Origin: a virus
Virus record (IMG/VR): IMGVR_UViG_3300040809_001127
Coordinates: 5,977-69,976 of that record
Strand: one strand, 5' to 3'
DNA length: 64,000 nucleotides
Shown: positions 5,748 through 34,393 of the stretch, piece by piece
Layout: each line of letters begins with the position of its first letter
Numbering within the stretch: position 1 is the first letter of the stretch
Translations under genes and position numbers: made by a program
Notes under the pieces: generated by a model
What the model saw: the letters and a program-made list of their open reading frames with translations, nothing else
Told to the model about the DNA's origin: nothing
Databases searched by the model: none

Positions 5748-6127
5748 TGTATCAATTTTTTATAGCAATTATTTTAATTTTAGGTGGTAGTAGTTATTGG
5801 TTATATAATGAAAACCAAATACTTATTGCAAATAATCAAAAATTAGAATATGCTGTGGAAGAACAAAAAGCTGCAATCGCAGCAATTCAAGAATCTTATG
5901 AAGCTCAGGGCAAAGCAATGCAAAATCTGCAAAGAGCAAATGCTCGTATAGAAGCTGAAAAAGATAGATACCTAGATATTTTTCGTAGACATAATTTAGA
6001 TAAATTGGCTATAGCAAAACCAGGCCTAATTGAAAATAGAGTTAATGGTGCAACAAAGTCAGTATTTGAGGACATTGAGAATGATAGCAAGAACATTGCT
6101 GATCTTGATAGCAACAGCTCTAATTAG
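5747..6127 (+). CDS. Putative inner-membrane spanin (Rz-like)
   Basis: N-terminal transmembrane helix then long coiled coil; overlaps a lipoprotein gene. Confidence 0.65.
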   Translation: MYQFFIAIILILGGSSYWLYNENQILIANNQKLEYAVEEQKAAIAAIQESYEAQGKAMQNLQRANARIEAEKDRYLDIFRRHNLDKLAIAKPGLIENRVNGATKSVFEDIENDSKNIADLDSNSSN

Positions 6128-6883: not shown

Positions 6884-6912
6884 TTTACTTTTTGGCGTAA
6901 ATAGTATATAAT
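6884..6912 (+). promoter_or_regulatory. Sigma70-type (T4 early-like) promoter for nrdA
   Basis: TTTACT-N17-TATAAT in intergenic gap. Confidence 0.65.
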
Positions 6913-13007: not shown

Positions 13008-13184
13008 ATGAGTATTACTCAAATTGAACGCCTCAGAAAAGATGTAAGAGAGGCTACTTTTTATCAAAAAAGATTGACAAAGAAAGGTAAACATACCTTA
13101 GCGTATAAAATGGAAAAGAAAATACAGTACATGTCAAATTTGTTAGATGACACAGTGGAGGAAATACTTAGGGAGACGCATTAG
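13008..13184 (+). CDS. 58-aa hypothetical protein (not in ORF track)
   Basis: AGGAG RBS; MSITQIERLRKD...ILRETH. Confidence 0.6.
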   Translation: MSITQIERLRKDVREATFYQKRLTKKGKHTLAYKMEKKIQYMSNLLDDTVEEILRETH

Positions 13185-13194
13185 CGTCTCCTTT
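13172..13194 (+). terminator. Hairpin, probable intrinsic terminator overlapping the next promoter
   Basis: GGAGACGC-ATTA-GCGTCTCC followed by TTT. Confidence 0.55.
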
Positions 13195-16296: not shown

Positions 16297-16501
16297 TAAC
16301 TATAAAGACGAGATCGTAAAGGTAACTAAACTTCATTTAGAAGGACATATTGAGAAGCATAGAATGAATGTTAAGATTCTATTAGGCTCTCATGTGGGAG
16401 TTGCTGAACATCCTGATCTCATGGAAACGATTGAAAAAGAACTTGCAATGATGGCTGATTACAGTGATAAGCTTGAAATGCTCGAAAAATATTTCAATTA
16501 A
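16289..16501 (+). CDS. Conserved small hypothetical protein
   Basis: AGGAG RBS; VGVAEHPDLMETIEKEL motif. Confidence 0.7.
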   Translation: MASNYKDEIVKVTKLHLEGHIEKHRMNVKILLGSHVGVAEHPDLMETIEKELAMMADYSDKLEMLEKYFN

Positions 16502-16515
16502 TTTCACAAAAACCG

Positions 16516-16544
16516 TTTACAAAGCTCCATTTATGTGTTATAAT
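16516..16544 (+). promoter_or_regulatory. T4 early-like promoter
   Basis: TTTCACAAAAACCG-TTTACA-N17-TATAAT. Confidence 0.8.
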
Positions 16545-16566
16545 AGTACTATAAATGGAGTAGAGA

Positions 16567-17160
16567 ATGAAGAAAATGAAAGATAATATAATCCTAGTAG
16601 ACTGCGATGGTGTCCTATGTGATTGGGCATATTCGTTTACTGCTTGGATGGAACATACTAAAAAGATACCAACCCTAGATTTCAATGAATATAATGTAGG
16701 AAAAAGATTTGGTATTACAATGCAAGAAGGTAGAAAGCTTGTAGCAGAATTTAATGATTCAGCGGCAATTGCTTTCTTACCACCATTAAGAGATGCAGTA
16801 TATTATGTCAAAAGACTCAATATGTTACATGGATATAGATTCCATTGTATCACATCTTTGAGTGATAACAAATACGCTCAAAGATTAAGAACTCAAAATC
16901 TAGAGTTACTCTTTGGTAAAGAGATTTTTGATGAGTTTGTATATCTACCTTGTGGTGCAGATAAAGATGAAGCTCTTGCAAAATATAAAGGCACTGAATG
17001 TTTTTGGGTAGAAGATAAACCTGAAAACGCAGAGGAAGGTCTCAAGAATGGACTTAATTCTATTCTTGTAGCTCACGACCACAATACTGATGCAGATCCA
17101 AATATCCCAAGATTTTGGAAATGGAAAGAAATTTATAAACATATAACCGGAGAAGTATAA
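16567..17160 (+). CDS. HAD-family 5'(3')-deoxyribonucleotidase-like protein
   Basis: DCDGVL, CITS, WVEDKPEN motifs. Confidence 0.8.
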   Translation: MKKMKDNIILVDCDGVLCDWAYSFTAWMEHTKKIPTLDFNEYNVGKRFGITMQEGRKLVAEFNDSAAIAFLPPLRDAVYYVKRLNMLHGYRFHCITSLSDNKYAQRLRTQNLELLFGKEIFDEFVYLPCGADKDEALAKYKGTECFWVEDKPENAEEGLKNGLNSILVAHDHNTDADPNIPRFWKWKEIYKHITGEV

Positions 17161-23249: not shown

Positions 23250-24312
23250 TTTTTTCATTAGTGGGGTTAGTTTCGCGGCTGACCCCATAGGTGATATAAG
23301 AGAAGTTAAAGGAGTCACATCAATTGTACGGGATAAAGAAGTTATAAAGACTTCTGAAAATCTTGGAGTACAATTGTATGACGAAGCACAGACTGGAAAT
23401 GGTCGAATGCTTATAGAATTTTTAGATAAAGCTGAATTATCTCTCAAAGAACATTCACAAGTTTTTATTGACGAAATATATTATGACCCAGACCCTTCAT
23501 TATCTAAAATGTCAATGAAAATGGTTATGGGTACAGCAAGATTTGCTTCAGGTTCTCTGGGGCTCGTAAACAAAGCAAACATAGACATATCAACGCCAAC
23601 AGCAACAATTGCAGTTCGTGGTACTGATTTTACTACAACAATCGATGAACTCGGTCGATCGTTAATTATATTATTGCCAGATCAATTTGGTAATCCTTCT
23701 GGTGAAATAGAAGTATCTAATGATGGTGGTACTATTACTTTAAATGAAGCATACGCAACTACTTTAGTTTCTAGTTTTGATAATCCACCAATGAAACAAG
23801 TTGTATTAAACGGCATCACACCAGCTGTAATTGATAATATGTTTATTGTTAATCCTCCTGAAGAAGTAAAACGTCAAGTAGAGCAAGAATTACAAGATGA
23901 AAAAAATGAAGACCAAGGCATATTAGATATAGACTTTCTAGATTTTACAGAATTAGAAGAAGATGAATTAGAAGAAGATCAATTAGATGATACAACTGAA
24001 TTAGATATTAATGAATTAGATGTAGAATTTTTAGTTGATGTATTAGATCAAATAGATTCAGGAGATTTATTTGATACATTAGGTGAGTTTGATTTAAAAG
24101 GCGCATCAAGAGGATTAAATAAAGAATCGCAATACAACGTATTTCTCAGAGATGGAGATTTAGTATTGTATAGAAATATTAATGGTGTAATTGAAGTACA
24201 AATAGGTGCTGGTGGAAACTTTACATTATATACTACAACTCCTACATGGGACGGTGTTATAACCGGTAATGATGGAGAAGATATTGAAATAGTTATAAGA
24301 CAACTAAATTAA
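23203..24312 (+). CDS. FecR-domain periplasmic protein
   Basis: Signal peptide; LYDEAQTGNGRMLIEFLD, ISTPTATIAVRGTDF; acidic linker. Confidence 0.8.
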   Translation: MRSFSLIKKTQLTILSFFISGVSFAADPIGDIREVKGVTSIVRDKEVIKTSENLGVQLYDEAQTGNGRMLIEFLDKAELSLKEHSQVFIDEIYYDPDPSLSKMSMKMVMGTARFASGSLGLVNKANIDISTPTATIAVRGTDFTTTIDELGRSLIILLPDQFGNPSGEIEVSNDGGTITLNEAYATTLVSSFDNPPMKQVVLNGITPAVIDNMFIVNPPEEVKRQVEQELQDEKNEDQGILDIDFLDFTELEEDELEEDQLDDTTELDINELDVEFLVDVLDQIDSGDLFDTLGEFDLKGASRGLNKESQYNVFLRDGDLVLYRNINGVIEVQIGAGGNFTLYTTTPTWDGVITGNDGEDIEIVIRQLN

Positions 24313-27137: not shown

Positions 27138-27184
27138 GAACAACACTTTTTCACAAGTTTTTTCACTTTTTTTTAAAAAAACCG

Positions 27185-27213
27185 TTTACAAAGACTCCAA
27201 ACTGTGGTATAAT
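27185..27213 (+). promoter_or_regulatory. T4 early-like promoter with T/A-tract upstream element
   Basis: AAAACCG-TTTACA-N17-TATAAT with TGTGG extension. Confidence 0.8.
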
Positions 27214-27219
27214 ATACCC

Positions 27220-27681
27220 ATGATAAGGAAAAACGTAATATTCGATGTAGATGGAACAATCGCTGATTGTAACCACAGACGTAAATTTGTAGATGGATCT
27301 CAGAAAAAAGACTGGGATGCATTTAAAGATGCCACACACTTAGACACACCGATTCAACACGTATGCGATATGGCTAAACAGCATTATGCTGACGAAGATA
27401 CTGTTATCTTTGTATCTGCCAGAAACAATTCACAAAGACAAATAACTGAAAAACAAATAACTGAATGGATAGGCATAGAGAATCCTATATTGTTTCTTAG
27501 ACCTGATGGTGACTACAGATCAGACGATGTATTTAAGAAAGACGTATTAGAAGTAATTAGAGATATGCTTGGTCAAGATCCAGATGTTGTATACGACGAC
27601 AGAAATCAAGTTGTTGACATGTGGAGAGCCAATGGTATCAATTGTATACAAGTTGTTCCAAGAAATGAAGGTGATTTTTAA
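27220..27681 (+). CDS. HAD phosphatase (polynucleotide 3'-phosphatase domain, PseT C-terminal-like)
   Basis: IFDVDGTIAD, FVSAR, LFLRPDGDYRSDDVFK, YDDRNQVVDMWR; start ATG 27220. Confidence 0.85.
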   Translation: MIRKNVIFDVDGTIADCNHRRKFVDGSQKKDWDAFKDATHLDTPIQHVCDMAKQHYADEDTVIFVSARNNSQRQITEKQITEWIGIENPILFLRPDGDYRSDDVFKKDVLEVIRDMLGQDPDVVYDDRNQVVDMWRANGINCIQVVPRNEGDF

Positions 27682-27998
27682 TGCAAACGACTAATGAGTT
27701 ATATTATTCAGCAGATATCCAAGTAATCAAAGAGACTACTGACTGGGATATTCCTAATCATACGTATTATATCAATCGTTCTGAAAAGATGGTTGCATAT
27801 ATCTCTCGTACTGGTGAAAAGAAAGTTTTTATAAAGCCATTATCTTTCAGCCGTTCTGGCCGCAAGTTTCATGTGATGAAAGATTTTGGCTATCCCCGTT
27901 CCGGTAAGTATAAGACAACCGCCACAAGCTGTACATGCTTAGGGTTCTTATATCGTAAACAGTGTAAACATGTCAAGGCTTATAACAAAAAAGTCTAA
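27681..27998 (+). CDS. SWIM zinc-finger protein
   Basis: CTC-x7-CKH at C-terminus. Confidence 0.7.
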   Translation: MQTTNELYYSADIQVIKETTDWDIPNHTYYINRSEKMVAYISRTGEKKVFIKPLSFSRSGRKFHVMKDFGYPRSGKYKTTATSCTCLGFLYRKQCKHVKAYNKKV

Positions 27999-28026
27999 AA
28001 AAAGTGAATTTTTTTTCACAAAACCG

Positions 28027-28054
28027 TTTACATTTACCGAGAATGTGGTATAAT
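28027..28054 (+). promoter_or_regulatory. T4 early-like promoter
   Basis: TTTCACAAAACCG-TTTACA-N16-TATAAT with TGTGG extension. Confidence 0.78.
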
Positions 28055-28083
28055 AGTCATATAAATTGATAAGGAGTTAAATT

Positions 28084-28356
28084 ATGAAAAAATCTATTAT
28101 GAATGCAATCAATGGAATCTCTTCTATTGAGGAAATGAACGAAGTGATCGGTCTGATCAAAATCAAGCAAAAGCAACTGAAGTCTATTCAAGTGGCTATG
28201 AACAAAAACGCAATTAGCGTTGGTTCAAAGGTCAAAGTAACTTCAAGAGCCGGCGTTGAATACGGTAAAGTTCTTGAAATCAAAAGGACTAAAGCCATCG
28301 TAATGATCGATGGTATGAGATACAATTGCCCTATCTCAATCATGGAGGCAGCGTAA
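28084..28356 (+). CDS. Early hypothetical protein (possible SH3/KOW-like C-terminus)
   Basis: Strong TAAGGAG RBS; ISVGSKVKV...GKVLEIKRTKAIV. Confidence 0.75.
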   Translation: MKKSIMNAINGISSIEEMNEVIGLIKIKQKQLKSIQVAMNKNAISVGSKVKVTSRAGVEYGKVLEIKRTKAIVMIDGMRYNCPISIMEAA

Positions 28357-28580: not shown

Positions 28581-28978
28581 TGGAAAAAATTATTTATAGT
28601 GCAAGCGATTCTGGTGGCGATGGAACTTCTCTTAAAGGTTACATCCTTGCTTCGTATCGCGAATTAGTAGATATGTTTGGCGATCCTGCATATGGAGAGT
28701 CAGGCGATAGTAAATGTACATTTACCTTTGTAGTTAACTACGAAATTAGTTATAATGGCGATTGCGAGTATGGTACATTTACTCTATACGATTGGAAAGG
28801 AAATCGTCCTTATGATGACAATGAACGATTTGAAGTTCATGTTGGTGGTTCTTGTATTACCGATAGCTTAGCAGCTGAAAATGCAATTCGAATTTTTAAT
28901 AAAACCGATGCTCGATATACAGCAGATAAAGACTGTATGTCTGGTGTCTCATTTGATATGGGAGTAGAATATGTCTAA
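28580..28978 (+). CDS. Hypothetical protein
   Basis: GTSLKGYI.ASY.ELV..FGDP...FTLYDWK..HVGG motif of early phage proteins. Confidence 0.65.
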   Translation: MEKIIYSASDSGGDGTSLKGYILASYRELVDMFGDPAYGESGDSKCTFTFVVNYEISYNGDCEYGTFTLYDWKGNRPYDDNERFEVHVGGSCITDSLAAENAIRIFNKTDARYTADKDCMSGVSFDMGVEYV

Positions 28979-29246
28979 TTTTGATGAAATAAAAAGAATC
29001 CTTCAAGAAGAAAAGGAAAAAATGGAGTTTGAGAAAACTGTAAAAAAGGTTTACTCAAAGCCTAAAAATTATTATAATAAACTCAGTGCGCAAGTAAAGA
29101 AGGCTGGTAAACAGTCTCCTGGTGGCTTGGATTGTTTCAAAGAAGAAAATATGTACTATACCGAAAAAGAAACTAATGATTATCTTTCAGGGTCAAGCTA
29201 TATGGAAACATACAACGCAATGAAAGGACAAGATGACTGGGATTAA
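28971..29246 (+). CDS. Hypothetical protein
   Basis: GGGAG RBS. Confidence 0.6.
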   Translation: MSNFDEIKRILQEEKEKMEFEKTVKKVYSKPKNYYNKLSAQVKKAGKQSPGGLDCFKEENMYYTEKETNDYLSGSSYMETYNAMKGQDDWD

Positions 29247-29943: not shown

Positions 29944-30107
29944 TGGAATATATTTTTATAATCATAGCTGGTTATTTTGCTTTTATGAGTAGTCATATTG
30001 TTTCAGAACAAAAAGCAGGTAAACATATTCCTCTCCCTTGGGAAAAAGAGAGTAACGAAATATTTGATAAGTCTAAAATCAAATATACAGATGGAGATAA
30101 TACATGA
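29943..30107 (+). CDS. 54-aa membrane protein (not in ORF track)
   Basis: AGGAG RBS, TAATG and ATGA overlaps; MEYIFIIIAGYFAF...IPLPWEK. Confidence 0.6.
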   Translation: MEYIFIIIAGYFAFMSSHIVSEQKAGKHIPLPWEKESNEIFDKSKIKYTDGDNT

Positions 30108-30286
30108 AATATAGTACTTATGTTGACGATGATAGAACCGCTCATGTAGTAAGAGATGCCGATGGAAATTGGGGAATTGCAATGTACGAAAATAACGAAC
30201 ATGTTCGTACTGAAGTTTATAAAGGACATAGTGAAATTTATGCTGAGAACGCGGCAGAAAATTATGTCATGAAGATAAAAAATTAG
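30104..30286 (+). CDS. Hypothetical protein
   Basis: GGAG RBS; HSEIYAENAAENYV. Confidence 0.65.
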   Translation: MKYSTYVDDDRTAHVVRDADGNWGIAMYENNEHVRTEVYKGHSEIYAENAAENYVMKIKN

Positions 30287-30291
30287 TTTAT

Positions 30292-30337
30292 GGCTGGCGC
30301 AGAATTCTACTCCTTATCAATTGACTCTGCGTCGGCC
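30292..30337 (+). ncRNA. Intergenic stem-loop with anti-Shine-Dalgarno loop; candidate antisense regulatory RNA
   Basis: 12-bp stem GGCTGGCGCAGA/TCTGCGTCGGCC (two G-U pairs); 22-nt loop containing ACTCCTTATCAATT, reverse complement of 28064-28077. Confidence 0.6.
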
Positions 30338-30356
30338 TTCTATTGTGGAGAGTTAA

Positions 30357-31511
30357 ATGGCTAAAAAGAAAAATGCCGGAATGTCAAGGCAGACACTTGA
30401 CGATAAAATGATGGGTCCTGAACCTGCATGGGTTGAAGGCGATATCACTGAAGAAAATTATAAAAGAGAACTAAATGCAGGTTTGCGTTGGTATAACTAT
30501 TTCTGGAAACCTAAGCAGTATGTTAAACCTGCTCTTACCTATGCAAAAGATGTATTAAAGTTTTCTAAGAAAGATATTGATTCTCTTAAAAAGCTGAAAG
30601 ATTATCAATTATCACTTACGCCTGGACCTGGTCGTTTAGCACAGCTTGCTCTACGAGGGTTTCCTACAGAACAATTTGATGATTACCTTAAGGCTAAATA
30701 TGACGAGTGCTTAAAGGTTGCCAAAGAAATTATTGTTGAACAAAAACAAGAACAAAAAGAAAAATCTAAAAAGCCTGTTATTACACCAGCTGATCGTATG
30801 AAAATAAAAGTCATAGAAACCATCATGGGAGACTTTGATGAAATCTTAATAGATGCTTGGATGGAAGATAACTTTGATGTTAAATTTGACACTTACAATC
30901 TACTTAAAAAACATGACATCAAAGGAACGGGTCTTAATATCTTTAAGCAAAGAGTGGAAGAATATCATTTAGAAATAAGTGATGCATACGACAAAAAATG
31001 TGACCAAGCTGTAGAAGCTTATTCACATGTTAAACGTACTAACCTACGTAAAATGAAAAAAGAACTTGAAAATATTTTAAGTGATATTGAAAAAATTCGT
31101 ACAGCTCAAAAGCAAACTCGTAAGCCAAGAGCTCATAAAGCAAAAGCTTCTGATAAGCAAGTCGAAAAGCTACAATATTGCAAAGAAAATAATGAAGCAA
31201 AGCTTGCTTCGATTAATCCGGTTACAATTCCAGGCGCTCAACGTCTTTACATGTTTAACATAAAGAATAAAAAGCTTACTGAATTTATATCCGACAGCGC
31301 ATCAGGATTTGAGGTGAGTGGTACATCAATCAAAAATTATGATCCAGCACAATCACGCTGCGTCACTCTACGAAAACCTGATGATGTAATCCCTGGGGTC
31401 ATGACAAAGACAGTGAAACAGATTGACAATATTTGGAAGACTCTAACAACAAAAACTACTAAACCTACAGCTCGTATTAACAACGACTGTATTTTATTAA
31501 GAGTATTATAG
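30357..31511 (+). CDS. Conserved hypothetical protein of T4-like phages
   Basis: 384-aa ORF, GGAG RBS; SINPVTIPGA..L..FNIK..KL, GFEVSGTSI, TLRKP, ARINNDCILLRV. Confidence 0.75.
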   Translation: MAKKKNAGMSRQTLDDKMMGPEPAWVEGDITEENYKRELNAGLRWYNYFWKPKQYVKPALTYAKDVLKFSKKDIDSLKKLKDYQLSLTPGPGRLAQLALRGFPTEQFDDYLKAKYDECLKVAKEIIVEQKQEQKEKSKKPVITPADRMKIKVIETIMGDFDEILIDAWMEDNFDVKFDTYNLLKKHDIKGTGLNIFKQRVEEYHLEISDAYDKKCDQAVEAYSHVKRTNLRKMKKELENILSDIEKIRTAQKQTRKPRAHKAKASDKQVEKLQYCKENNEAKLASINPVTIPGAQRLYMFNIKNKKLTEFISDSASGFEVSGTSIKNYDPAQSRCVTLRKPDDVIPGVMTKTVKQIDNIWKTLTTKTTKPTARINNDCILLRVL

Positions 31512-31519
31512 GAGGTACT

Positions 31520-32041
31520 ATGTATACAGTAGGAGATACTTTTCCCGCTTTCTCACTGCAGGGAATTGATTCAAACAATGAATTTGTGAGAGTAGAGATT
31601 GAAGAAGGTTATACACCACATAAAAAGGATTGGTCTGTAATCTACTTTTATCCAAAAGATTTTACCTTTATCTGTCCAACAGAAATTGCTGGTATGGACG
31701 TTTTGGTAGATCATGCAAATGTAATTGGCATTAGTGGAGATAATGAATTTTGTAAGTTAGCTTGGAAAAAAGACAACGAACTTATTGGCTCTATTAATCA
31801 TACACTGGCTGCTGATTGTGGTCTTGGTTTGTCGCATCAACTTGGAATCGTAAATGAAAAAGAAGGAGTTTGTTATAGAGCAACGTTTATCTTCGATAAA
31901 CATAGAACGATTCAACATGTTTCTGTGAACGCATTAGATACTGGTAGAAATGCAAATGAAGTATTAAGGACTTTAAAAGCATTACAAGCTGGTGGACTTA
32001 CTGGTTGCTCTTGGGATGACGGAGATGAATTTGTTGGGTGA
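31520..32041 (+). CDS. ahpC: Peroxiredoxin (AhpC/TSA family)
   Basis: YFYPKDFTFICPTE peroxidatic motif, RATFI, GRNANEVLR, C-terminal Cys. Confidence 0.9.
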   Translation: MYTVGDTFPAFSLQGIDSNNEFVRVEIEEGYTPHKKDWSVIYFYPKDFTFICPTEIAGMDVLVDHANVIGISGDNEFCKLAWKKDNELIGSINHTLAADCGLGLSHQLGIVNEKEGVCYRATFIFDKHRTIQHVSVNALDTGRNANEVLRTLKALQAGGLTGCSWDDGDEFVG

Positions 32042-32276
32042 TGCCCTAGAGCAAAAGATAATGACTCGCAAGAGATTCTCTACTGCGGTAGAAACTCTTG
32101 TGTCTCAAAATAACATGTCTTATATTGATGCTGCAACTTATGTTGTAGAGAAAAGAGGACTTGATTATAAAAACCTGAAGAAGTTACTTACCGATTCTTT
32201 AAAACAAAAGATCGAAGAAGAAGCTGCTTCACTACACCTGGTTAGAATTAAGCAGGGAAATAAACTACCAATCTAG
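32025..32276 (+). CDS. gp33: Late-transcription coactivator gp33
   Basis: FSTAVETLV..NMSYIDA...LKQKIEEEA..KLPI; synteny with dsbA, gp59, gp32; exact start uncertain. Confidence 0.8.
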   Translation: MNLLGDALEQKIMTRKRFSTAVETLVSQNNMSYIDAATYVVEKRGLDYKNLKKLLTDSLKQKIEEEAASLHLVRIKQGNKLPI

Positions 32277-32284
32277 GAGAAAAA

Positions 32285-32545
32285 ATGAGTAATGTAATTA
32301 TTCCAACATCGGATGAAGATAAAAAGCGTATTAAAGGATGTATTGAAGAGATTAGTAATTCACTAACTCGTATTGCAGCAGAACGTGACTTCATTAAAGA
32401 AGCAATTGCTGAATGCTGTGATGACGTTGAAGTAGATAAAAAGTATCTACGTAAAATGGCAAACATTCATTTTAAGCAAAATCTATCTGAGGTTGTAACT
32501 GAAGTAGATGATATTGAAACATTATACGAATCAGTAATGCAATGA
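32285..32545 (+). CDS. dsbA: T4-type double-stranded DNA-binding protein
   Basis: EISNSLTRIAAERDFIKE..KYLRKMANIHFKQN; synteny. Confidence 0.75.
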   Translation: MSNVIIPTSDEDKKRIKGCIEEISNSLTRIAAERDFIKEAIAECCDDVEVDKKYLRKMANIHFKQNLSEVVTEVDDIETLYESVMQ

Positions 32546-32703
32546 CACGTATTTGGACTATATGGAAATACGCATTAGGAGGATTTTCCGATGACAAGAC
32601 AGAGCCGTATGATGATTATGTGGCTTTACTTCGTACTATTATCGTCGGGGTTAATTTTGCTACATGCTTTTTTATCATGGCAAACGTAATACATAATTGG
32701 TAA
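32542..32703 (+). CDS. 53-aa membrane protein (not in ORF track)
   Basis: ATGA overlap; WTIWKYALGGFSD..YDDYVALLRT...IMANVIHNW. Confidence 0.65.
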   Translation: MTRIWTIWKYALGGFSDDKTEPYDDYVALLRTIIVGVNFATCFFIMANVIHNW

Positions 32704-32705
32704 CT

Positions 32706-33299
32706 ATGAGAGATCCATTCGAATCATATAAAATGTACAACGCTTTAAAGCTACACTTTGAAAGCGATTCTTACAATGCGTTAAAATATAACTTTAAGAC
32801 TTCAGTTACTCCTAAGTCTTTCTTTAATCGTAAGGATAAGTACTTTTTTGCAAAGCTTGCAAACACATATGAAGATAATCTTAGAGATTTCTATGTTGCA
32901 AACTTTAAGAATGATGTCAAATATGTTGGTGATATGCTTAATGAAGACGGAGCACGTCACTACAAAAGTCATTTAAAAATTGCACAAAGTCTTCATCGAC
33001 AGTTTGAAGTTGATATAAATAAACTAGCTGAAGAAAATGTACCATTTGATCGTATGTTCATAAGTGAAGATGGTCAGTTTCCTTTAGTGGTTAGAATATG
33101 GATGCAAGAAGAAATCTGTTTAGAAACTCTTGTTATCCTTAATTCTATATTGGGTTTTATACCTCGGGAGTCCGAAAAGATATCAGACACGATTATGTGG
33201 CCAGATATCAAGAGGAAGATTGAGAAGTATACGCCTTTTGTAAGCTTTAGATCAGATCTATGTAAAAATATTTTGAAAAAAAGGTTTACAACAAAGTGA
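32706..33299 (+). CDS. gp59: Helicase loader gp59
   Basis: YKMYNALKLHF...YN..KYN.K, RKDKYFFAKLA, LETLVIL, KYTPF; precedes gp32. Confidence 0.88.
   Translation: MRDPFESYKMYNALKLHFESDSYNALKYNFKTSVTPKSFFNRKDKYFFAKLANTYEDNLRDFYVANFKNDVKYVGDMLNEDGARHYKSHLKIAQSLHRQFEVDINKLAEENVPFDRMFISEDGQFPLVVRIWMQEEICLETLVILNSILGFIPRESEKISDTIMWPDIKRKIEKYTPFVSFRSDLCKNILKKRFTTK
33014..33021 (+). promoter_or_regulatory. Possible late promoter for gp32 inside gp59
   Basis: TATAAATA. Confidence 0.4.
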
Positions 33300-33313: not shown

Positions 33314-33363
33314 ATAGATTATATTATGTATAAAGTGGATAATTCAGATATACGGAGAAAAAT

Positions 33364-34354: not shown

Positions 34355-34368
34355 TAAATTGCCCGAAG

Positions 34369-34392
34369 AGCCCAGTTGCAACTGGGCTTTTT
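34369..34392 (+). terminator. Intrinsic terminator between convergent units
   Basis: AGCCCAGT-TGCA-ACTGGGCT followed by TTTT. Confidence 0.85.
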
Positions 34393-34393
34393 G

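Follow-up and report, generated by a model that had tools for sequence, protein, structure and literature searches.

The window analysed here is a 64,000-nucleotide (nt) stretch of IMG/VR record IMGVR_UViG_3300040809_001127 (positions 5,977 to 69,976), which derives from an uncultured marine T4-like phage. The contig that holds it (69,976 bases, 34% G+C) is a T4-like phage fragment estimated to cover 42% of the genome. At positions 30292–30337 of the window lies a hairpin that, judged by comparison with its relatives, is a real RNA structure selected on the sense strand. By the same kind of comparison, its loop is antisense to the leaders of early promoter cassettes specifically, and not to ribosome-binding sites in general. 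Such a conserved anti-leader loop suggests an RNA-based control of early gene translation. The hairpin consists of the following parts (window coordinates are used throughout unless stated otherwise; SD, Shine-Dalgarno sequence):

30292..30303, plus strand: 5' stem arm, 12 nt, GGCTGGCGCAGA
30304..30325, plus strand: loop, 22 nt, ATTCTACTCCTTATCAATTGAC
30309..30319, plus strand: invariant loop core, anti-leader and anti-SD, ACTCCTTATCA
30326..30337, plus strand: 3' stem arm, TCTGCGTCGGCC, with covariation seen in alignments of relatives

An earlier note on this DNA had described a stem of 12 base pairs (bp) and a 22-nt loop, which sequence and folding confirmed. The pairs comprise eight G-C, two A-U and two G-U. 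The note had the G-U pairs closing the stem; the two pairs are present, but both are internal (30295–30334 and 30297–30332). The minimum free energy was −21.8 kcal/mol (z = −2.81 for 30280–30350), and 2 of 200 dinucleotide shuffles were equally stable. Over the whole window and on either strand, the hairpin was among the five most stable 56-nt local folds, two others of which were canonical hairpins with 4-nt loops. It was outside the 25 longest of the 84 inverted repeats detected in the window, and a terminator scan of the window did not call it. The U-tract that the note found missing is not cleanly absent: there is no T run, but the nine bases 30337–30345 (CTTCTATTG), counted from the last stem base, include five T. 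The longer tail from 30337 (CTTCTATTGT) has no run of four or more T. Rfam gave no match at the gathering score over the whole window, and within 30200–30420 at E up to 10 the best match was ncr1175 (12 bits against a gathering score of 60, E = 10). The absence of a matching Rfam family agrees with the statement in the note that no such system was known from T4-like phages.

Relatives of the hairpin were found in two ways. A scan of viral contigs with 14 loop bases returned at least 114 loci. In 18 of these a G+C-rich hairpin with a stem unlike that of the window surrounded the motif and lay between homologues (42–46% protein identity) of the two genes that flank the window hairpin, an open reading frame (ORF) of 60 amino acids (aa) and a gene of 384 aa; the remaining 96 were unrelated contexts. 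Because searching with the loop itself is biased, homologues of the 384-aa gene were also fetched, and the best 80 of 378 relatives formed a loop-blind sample. A hairpin was present upstream in 50 of these 80 loci, and ACTCCTTAT was exact in all 50 hairpins (up to three mismatches permitted, none inside ACTCCTTAT). Among the 30 loci with no hairpin upstream, five had less than 225 nt of upstream sequence, one of them showing only the 3' half of the hairpin, and six of the 30 initially negative loci had the hairpin 270–900 nt further upstream. A second fetch, centred on a hairpin-less clade, returned at least 526 relatives. After removal of duplicates, loci with less than 2 kb upstream and incomplete proteins, 94 distinct loci were left, and the hairpin occupied the same intergenic slot in 63 of them.

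The stems of 48 distinct contexts had 40 different 5' arms, which fell into 31 clusters at 70% identity. The loop, taken as closed by the innermost predicted pair, had a median length of 15 nt (range 9–36) across the family. In the records of relatives the core occurred once per record in G001–G003 and not at all in G005. A core match in G004 was considered as a second copy or target and rejected as chance, since it lies inside a PhoH-like ORF. Taken together, the family is a large, undescribed structured-RNA motif that is well supported by the sequences of its members. In two variants (L167:2361–2426 and L227) a small extra hairpin is nested in the 5' part of the loop and leaves the core single-stranded. 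In these variants an ORF and about 500 nt (528 nt in L227) separate the element from the 384-aa gene downstream.

Stem covariation across relatives, which the earlier note had proposed as a check, was found as compensatory changes in clades A and B. In the clade-B alignment, 6 of 11 pairs showed such changes. When clades A and B were combined (16 sequences), 160 of 160 cells were paired and 6 of the 10 pairs had changed on both sides. The covariation score of the combined alignment, which was fitted to the model and is to be read with that caveat, was 0.556 compared with 0.244 in shuffles, none of 500 reaching it, and 0.01–0.22 in slid controls. Pair 4 of the stem is U-G in the window, U-A in L001 and C-G in L002. 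The strand was indicated by the G-U pairs (89 of 844 pairs on the plus strand in the 48 contexts), which would be A-C mismatches on the minus strand. The plus-strand fold was also usually more stable than the minus-strand fold in relatives. A covariance model built from clade B only recovered the window hairpin as its sole full match in the window (32 bits, E = 2.5e-5), a second match being partial (E = 0.69). A broader model found nothing at E up to 1 in 11 hairpin-less loci, and a cross-clade model (R2) reached other clades only at E 0.0007–0.4. A MAFFT cross-clade alignment for covariance modelling was discarded because it placed unrelated stems out of register. Cross-clade pairing therefore rests on per-sequence folds.

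While the stems differ, the loop core ACUCCUUAU(CA), 9–11 nt, is invariant. In the 48 contexts, an A preceded CTCC in 48 of 48 cases, and TTAT was followed by C in 96% and then by A in 92%; all other loop positions carried 0–0.7 bits of information. The CTCCTTAT positions were required by the script behind the 48 contexts, and their invariance rests on the loop-blind set. Within clade A the loop flanks have changed (three positions in L002, a rebuilt loop in L003) and the 11-nt core has not. Three other explanations of the loop were tried and rejected. A CAATTG palindrome in the loop (30318–30323) could be a loop–loop dimerisation site, but it reads CATTTG in L002 and the L018-type clade and is so unconserved. 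A minus-strand gene with the loop as its SD is contradicted by the lack of a conserved start codon on the minus strand and by the G-U pairs, which favour the plus strand. A small ORF across the hairpin, or stop-codon read-through, does not fit the core frame, which differs between L014 and L018.

The loop core was compared with the sequences behind sigma-70-like promoters, drawn from the fetched loci as well as from the contig of this phage. Leaving out the leader of the 384-aa gene itself, 66 distinct promoter-proximal leaders bearing an SD gave the consensus ATTGATAAGGAGTA, which is the reverse complement of the loop core and the flank present in the window; early leaders of this kind are also labelled TGATAAGGAGT-type. 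At internal ribosome-binding sites, taken from the 244 of 457 gene starts that had GGA, the consensus was only a generic aGGAg. A T followed GGAG in 66% of the promoter-proximal leaders (67% in the 66-leader subset) versus 27% of the internal sites, and an A preceded GGA in 91% versus 53%. The contig itself holds four homologous cassettes, with promoters at contig position 1083 and at window positions 16516, 27185 and 28027, whose leaders contain complements of 13, 8, 9 and 14 nt, respectively. The remaining early-type promoters of this contig have almost no leader. Within the window, the complementary sites and the main promoter are:

28027..28054, plus strand: sigma-70-like early promoter, TTTACA-16-TATAAT, TG extended, strong
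28064..28077, plus strand: 14-nt exact complement of loop bases 30309–30322, covering the SD in the leader of gene 28084–28356
28961..28970, plus strand: 10-nt complement of the 5' part of the loop, GGAGTAGAAT, an SD abutting the ATG of gene 28971–29246
27221..27229, plus strand: 9-nt complement, TGATAAGGA, overlapping the start codon (27220) of the HAD_PNKP gene behind promoter 27185–27213
16557..16564, plus strand: 8-nt complement, GGAGTAGA, SD of gene 16567–17160 with its promoter at 16516

The exact 14-nt reverse complement over the SD behind promoter 28027 was correctly identified in the earlier note. The RNAduplex energy of the loop with this site was −19.8 kcal/mol, and promoter 28027 heads the small-ORF cluster whose end is the hairpin. 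The promoter variant AAAACCGTTTACA, which the note had placed at three genes, occurs in exactly three copies in the window (16509, 27178 and 28020). Its target list of 14-, 8- and 9-nt sites holds as far as it goes; it missed the 10-nt site at 28961–28970 and a 13-nt complement in the fourth homologous leader, 4.9 kb upstream of the window. A reverse-complement match of at least 14 nt was obtained for 20 of 2000 shuffled loops, for 9 of 2000 loop shuffles with AAGGAG held in place and for 16 of 1500 random native 22-mers. The chance of such a complement is thus about 0.005–0.01 across the three nulls.

From the structure, its conservation and its complementarity we infer that the loop would base-pair with the SD region of the stereotyped leaders that follow sigma-70-like early promoter cassettes. 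Candidate sites are 28064–28077, the leader upstream of the window, 28961–28970, 27221–27229 and 16557–16564. Such pairing would hide the ribosome-binding site, with repression of translation as the outcome, and the stability of the target mRNAs could change as well. The predicted 5' end of the transcript would be about 3 nt away from the first target, and the hairpin would lie about 2.25 kb further on, near the 3' part. Since both would be on one early transcript, the pairing may be intramolecular and delayed by transcription, besides intermolecular. In our judgement the chance that the loop, by pairing in cis or in trans with the SD regions of early leaders of the cassette type, keeps their translation down is close to even, though somewhat less than that. 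We put forward more tentatively, and with some doubt, that it represents the first regulatory-RNA class for T4-like phages, found in hundreds of uncultured marine myoviruses and acting by loop–leader pairing, in trans or within a transcript, in early shut-off.

The raw co-occurrence of hairpin and target was high: an upstream leader with a complement of at least 9 nt was found at 50 of the 63 hairpin loci versus 6 of the 31 hairpin-less ones, and in an earlier, smaller set the counts were 33 of 39 versus 2 of 14. Several results nevertheless weigh against loop–leader pairing. On the supported branches of the protein tree, five independent contrasts were available, of which 2.2 pointed the same way, 1.0 the opposite way and 1.8 showed no difference (sign test p ≥ 0.625; 0.375–0.625 in the earlier set). 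The association between hairpin and leader is inseparable from ancestry, with too few independent transitions. Related loci can also do without the hairpin, as 31 of the 94 do. The loop reads CATTTG in L002 and in the L018-type clade while their own leaders keep AATTG, and this change shortens the match from 14 and 12 nt to 11 and 9 nt. Co-variation of loop and target, the other check proposed in the note, thus fails where it can be read; the core never varies and is therefore uninformative on this point. In the records of three large relatives (113, 101 and 60 kb) the exact 11-nt complement of the core was absent, with complements of only 9–10 nt. In the window, the plus-strand loop matches of at least 8 nt number 41, so that the 8- and 9-nt sites have no weight on their own; the matches at 16557 and 27221 are at chance level, a possibility which the note had conceded. 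In relatives, the best-matching upstream leader was often that of the second or third promoter up, and specific pairing with the leader of the nearest upstream promoter, which we had considered, was not seen in the fetched loci.

The way the hairpin is transcribed is a further point on that side. Its early promoters are those of its proposed targets, and the sequence therefore gives no temporal switch. Two RNA libraries of one study include contigs that span the hairpin (30202–30437 and 30216–30378, with 0 or 1 difference) and run into the next gene, although such contigs reveal neither ends, strand nor abundance, and carry-over of DNA is possible. The hairpin is here probably part of a longer RNA, and a small RNA of its own may never be formed in this phage. 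Given the shared promoters and the bridging contigs, the discrete trans-acting RNA and the early-to-later switch proposed in the note are a matter of inference. Of its antisense reading, the selected sense-strand structure, the conserved loop and the complementarity to early leaders stand, whereas co-variation of the flanks and the short matches do not. A contig from RNA library X4 joins the leader at 28067 to position 33317, just behind a promoter at 33285, and skips 5249 bases. The shorter side of this join is only 26 letters long and may stem from a relative or a repeat; the join could be a cassette-mediated deletion variant.

A different role is conceivable for the hairpin in front of the gene that follows it. 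The features around it are:

30104..30286, plus strand: 60-aa ORF, its stop codon 5 nt before the stem; homologues precede the hairpin in relatives
30346..30359, plus strand: SD GGAGAG and ATG of the 384-aa gene, 8 nt past the stem; only GGAG is complementary to the loop
30357..31511, plus strand: 384-aa gene (phrog_11903, function unknown), the syntenic anchor of the hairpin family

The loop might act only in cis, as an insulator that masks the SD of the 384-aa gene on read-through RNAs and leaves RNAs from an internal promoter, which lack the loop, to be translated. We consider this unlikely. Under this reading the window clade would be a derived state of such a system, with deletion of the internal promoter and drift of the SD away from complementarity. 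The order in relatives is the one expected: hairpin, −35 and −10 boxes, SD, ATG. In most of them TTGACA or TTTACA stands right after the stem and is followed, after 16–18 nt, by TATAAT, a short leader and the 384-aa gene, and a sigma-70-like promoter was found within 150 nt past the stem in 27 of the 48 distinct contexts. The downstream SD matched the core over at least 8 nt in 18 of 30 distinct hairpin leaders, with ATAAGGAGTA (10 nt) in four. The mean longest match was 7.4 nt with the hairpin (n = 30) versus 5.8 nt without (n = 16; Mann–Whitney p = 0.0065, a comparison that lacks correction for ancestry). Masking of this kind has a precedent in T4, where, according to the available text of PMC3014915, an upstream segment masks the SD or AUG of e, soc, 49 and I-TevI on read-through RNAs and the RNAs from nearer promoters escape.

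The layout in relatives (hairpin loop, promoter, complementary SD) resembles that of the T4 genes, but the T4 SD is held in a simple local helix, whereas here the partner strand, about 70 nt upstream, sits in the loop of a hairpin that is separate and very stable, which would make the pairing pseudoknot-like, and the intervening promoter in relatives is of the early and not the late type. The window clade lacks both the promoter and the match, which fits a derived state: from the end of the stem to the ATG (30357) there are 19 nt with no promoter between, and the T4-like features are absent, with a match of 4 nt left. It has nevertheless kept the core although only GGAG is left to pair, and masking in cis alone is therefore insufficient there. 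In the L018-type clade the match is AAGGAG alone (6 nt). The hairpin-less loci L119 and L129 also have TAAGGAGTA, so that this SD exists without the loop, and L123, L144 and L157 have matches of 7–8 nt without an internal promoter, where masking would block their sole transcripts.

The same layout connects the hairpin with the PeSL cassettes of T4-like phages, which are described in the available text of PMC4122927 (see also PMC2839356) as a stem-loop, a sigma-70-like early promoter, an SD and a start codon among small variable ORFs. This layout was found in 27 of the 48 hairpin contexts. Judged by the sequence comparison, the hairpin forms the stem-loop part of a PeSL-type terminator/promoter unit in most relatives, and the window clade has lost the promoter. 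The window retains the SD (GGAGAG, 30346) and the ATG (30357) after a small-ORF cluster, but not a stem-loop directly upstream of an early promoter. That text characterises PeSL stem-loops through the stem (G-rich, loop, C-rich, for instance) and makes no mention of a conserved loop, whereas here the stem is free to vary and a large invariant loop is antisense to the cassette's own leader. The four promoter–leader cassettes of this contig likewise look like PeSL-type mobile regulatory cassettes in their sequence. They extend over contig positions 1038–1160 and window positions 16471–16590, 27140–27260 and 27982–28100, and have in common a T-rich/CAC upstream element, AAAAC(C/A)GTTTACA, GTGGTATAAT and an ATAAAT... 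leader. Elsewhere in the window, a hairpin at 13170–13190 directly abuts a TTTACA promoter at 13192, which is the PeSL layout. In L271 (300–355) a clade-B hairpin is followed by a TTTACA promoter; the metagenome bin that contains this 4.1-kb contig is titled Rhodobacteraceae, which as a hint at the host is weak and may be spurious.

Alternatively, the hairpin might be a terminator or stability element whose loop is bound by a protein, as a translational operator or a processing signal, with the complementarity to leaders incidental. A variable stem with an invariant loop is equally expected of a hairpin recognised by a protein, and T4 uses hairpin operators. The strict synteny with two conserved genes of unknown function would fit as well, as would the T run of at least four after the stem in 12 of the 48 contexts. 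The latter, together with the G+C-rich stem (8 of 12 pairs G-C in the window) and the position at the end of a gene cluster, is a likeness to intrinsic terminators. The window copy differs from these in its 22-nt loop (not 3–8 nt), in having no T run and in being crossed by the RNA-library contigs. We hold a protein-bound loop to be improbable, since the core and the leader consensus, two independently derived conserved sequences, match at 11 of 11 positions, which makes an incidental likeness very unlikely. Nor do the flanking genes, of 60 and 384 aa, follow the presence of the hairpin: both are also found at loci that lack it, and neither is thus a binder that co-varies with it. The 384-aa protein has no recognisable RNA-binding fold in a model of moderate quality.

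It is very improbable that the hairpin is a functionless relic, an inverted leader copy caught between G+C-rich inverted repeats (for example by cassette recombination) with a merely historical 14-nt match: four homologous, mobile-looking promoter–leader cassettes are present in this phage, PeSL cassettes are reported to mediate shuffling in the available text of PMC4122927, and hairpin presence changes state at least ten times on the tree, but neutral sequence would decay, whereas the core is invariant across lineages with flanking proteins 40–47% identical and unrelated stems, and compensatory changes keep the stem paired.

Returning to the pairing of the loop with early leaders, two known systems offer a comparison. 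The c4 RNA is co-transcribed with its target. In phages P1 and P7, complementary sequences borne on its loops pair around the ribosome-binding site and block translation, as the available text of PMC12197685 describes. The hairpin is alike in that its loop also presents an SD complement (14 nt for the gene at 28084), its core being antisense to the early-leader consensus. It differs in being a single hairpin of a lytic T4-like phage with several candidate leaders, whereas c4 belongs to temperate phages and serves antirepressor and immunity control; there is no sequence or Rfam relation. Co-variation of regulator and target, as expected of such an antisense RNA, was not found for the hairpin. 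RNAIII and Rsa-type RNAs of Gram-positive bacteria form stable hairpins whose pyrimidine-rich, C-rich loops pair with the SD of several mRNAs. They are host-encoded, have several hairpins and carry a short C-rich motif, whereas the element described here is phage-borne, and its 11-nt core matches a specific leader consensus of which the SD is only a part.

Among the papers listed in literature searches, none dealt with a conserved anti-SD or anti-leader loop in T4-like phages, though the 38 uncharacterised phage small RNAs tabulated in PMC12197685 could include something related. In the text of a 2025 review of phage-derived small RNAs, the phrase 'phage T4' has 0 occurrences. T4-type phages are a model for timed gene expression, and the hairpin is a short, easily mutated candidate for control of early translation at the RNA level in abundant marine phages. 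PeSL cassettes gain an unexpected property, in that the loop of the stem-loop is antisense to the leader of its own cassette. If the more tentative reading above is right, early translation would be shut down as early RNA builds up, and RNA alone would do what inactivation of the RegB type does to early mRNAs. The lack of a match to the RegB family (PF10715) in the 70-kb contig carries no weight, as the contig is an estimated 42% of a genome and the control genomes gave no match either. Even if the mechanism differs, the family is a new structured-RNA motif suited to an Rfam entry.

Among deposited phages no near relative was found: the 384-aa protein matched 43 records, at less than 34% identity only. 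For this protein Pfam offered nothing beyond a sub-threshold DUF4041 match. Its AlphaFold model (moderate, pLDDT 71.6, pTM 0.35) retrieved nothing below E = 0.3 with Foldseek against the PDB, and a search of the ESM Atlas with the protein gave no usable match. Upstream of the hairpin, the small-ORF cluster contains ORFs of 54–136 aa with early-type promoters at 28027 and 29546. Downstream of the 384-aa gene are the genes for the late-transcription coactivator gp33 (31992–32276), DsbA (32285–32545) and the helicase loader gp59 (32697–33299). An AhpC/TSA peroxiredoxin-like gene (31520–32041; Pfam E = 1.4e-22) is placed after the 384-aa gene and before gp33. The labels that the earlier note gave to two of the putative targets held in part: a HAD phosphatase domain of the polynucleotide-kinase type (HAD_PNKP, E = 1.9e-24) is encoded by the gene at 27220–27681, but the supposed HAD nucleotidase gene at 16567–17160 matched no Pfam family. 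The HAD_PNKP protein has only 153 aa and is apparently without a kinase domain.

Other hairpins of the window include a canonical terminator near 34364–34393, with a 4-nt loop and a U tract, and a G+C-rich one near 23260–23288. Behind the promoters that end at 6912, 11321, 13220, 27213 and 29574, the ATG follows 5–12 nt past the −10 box and there is no SD; the ATG of the HAD_PNKP gene (27220) is 7 nt past its −10 box. From their sequence, such early mRNAs look near-leaderless, and the same short, SD-less leader form was found in 35 of 163 distinct promoter-downstream sequences of the fetched loci.

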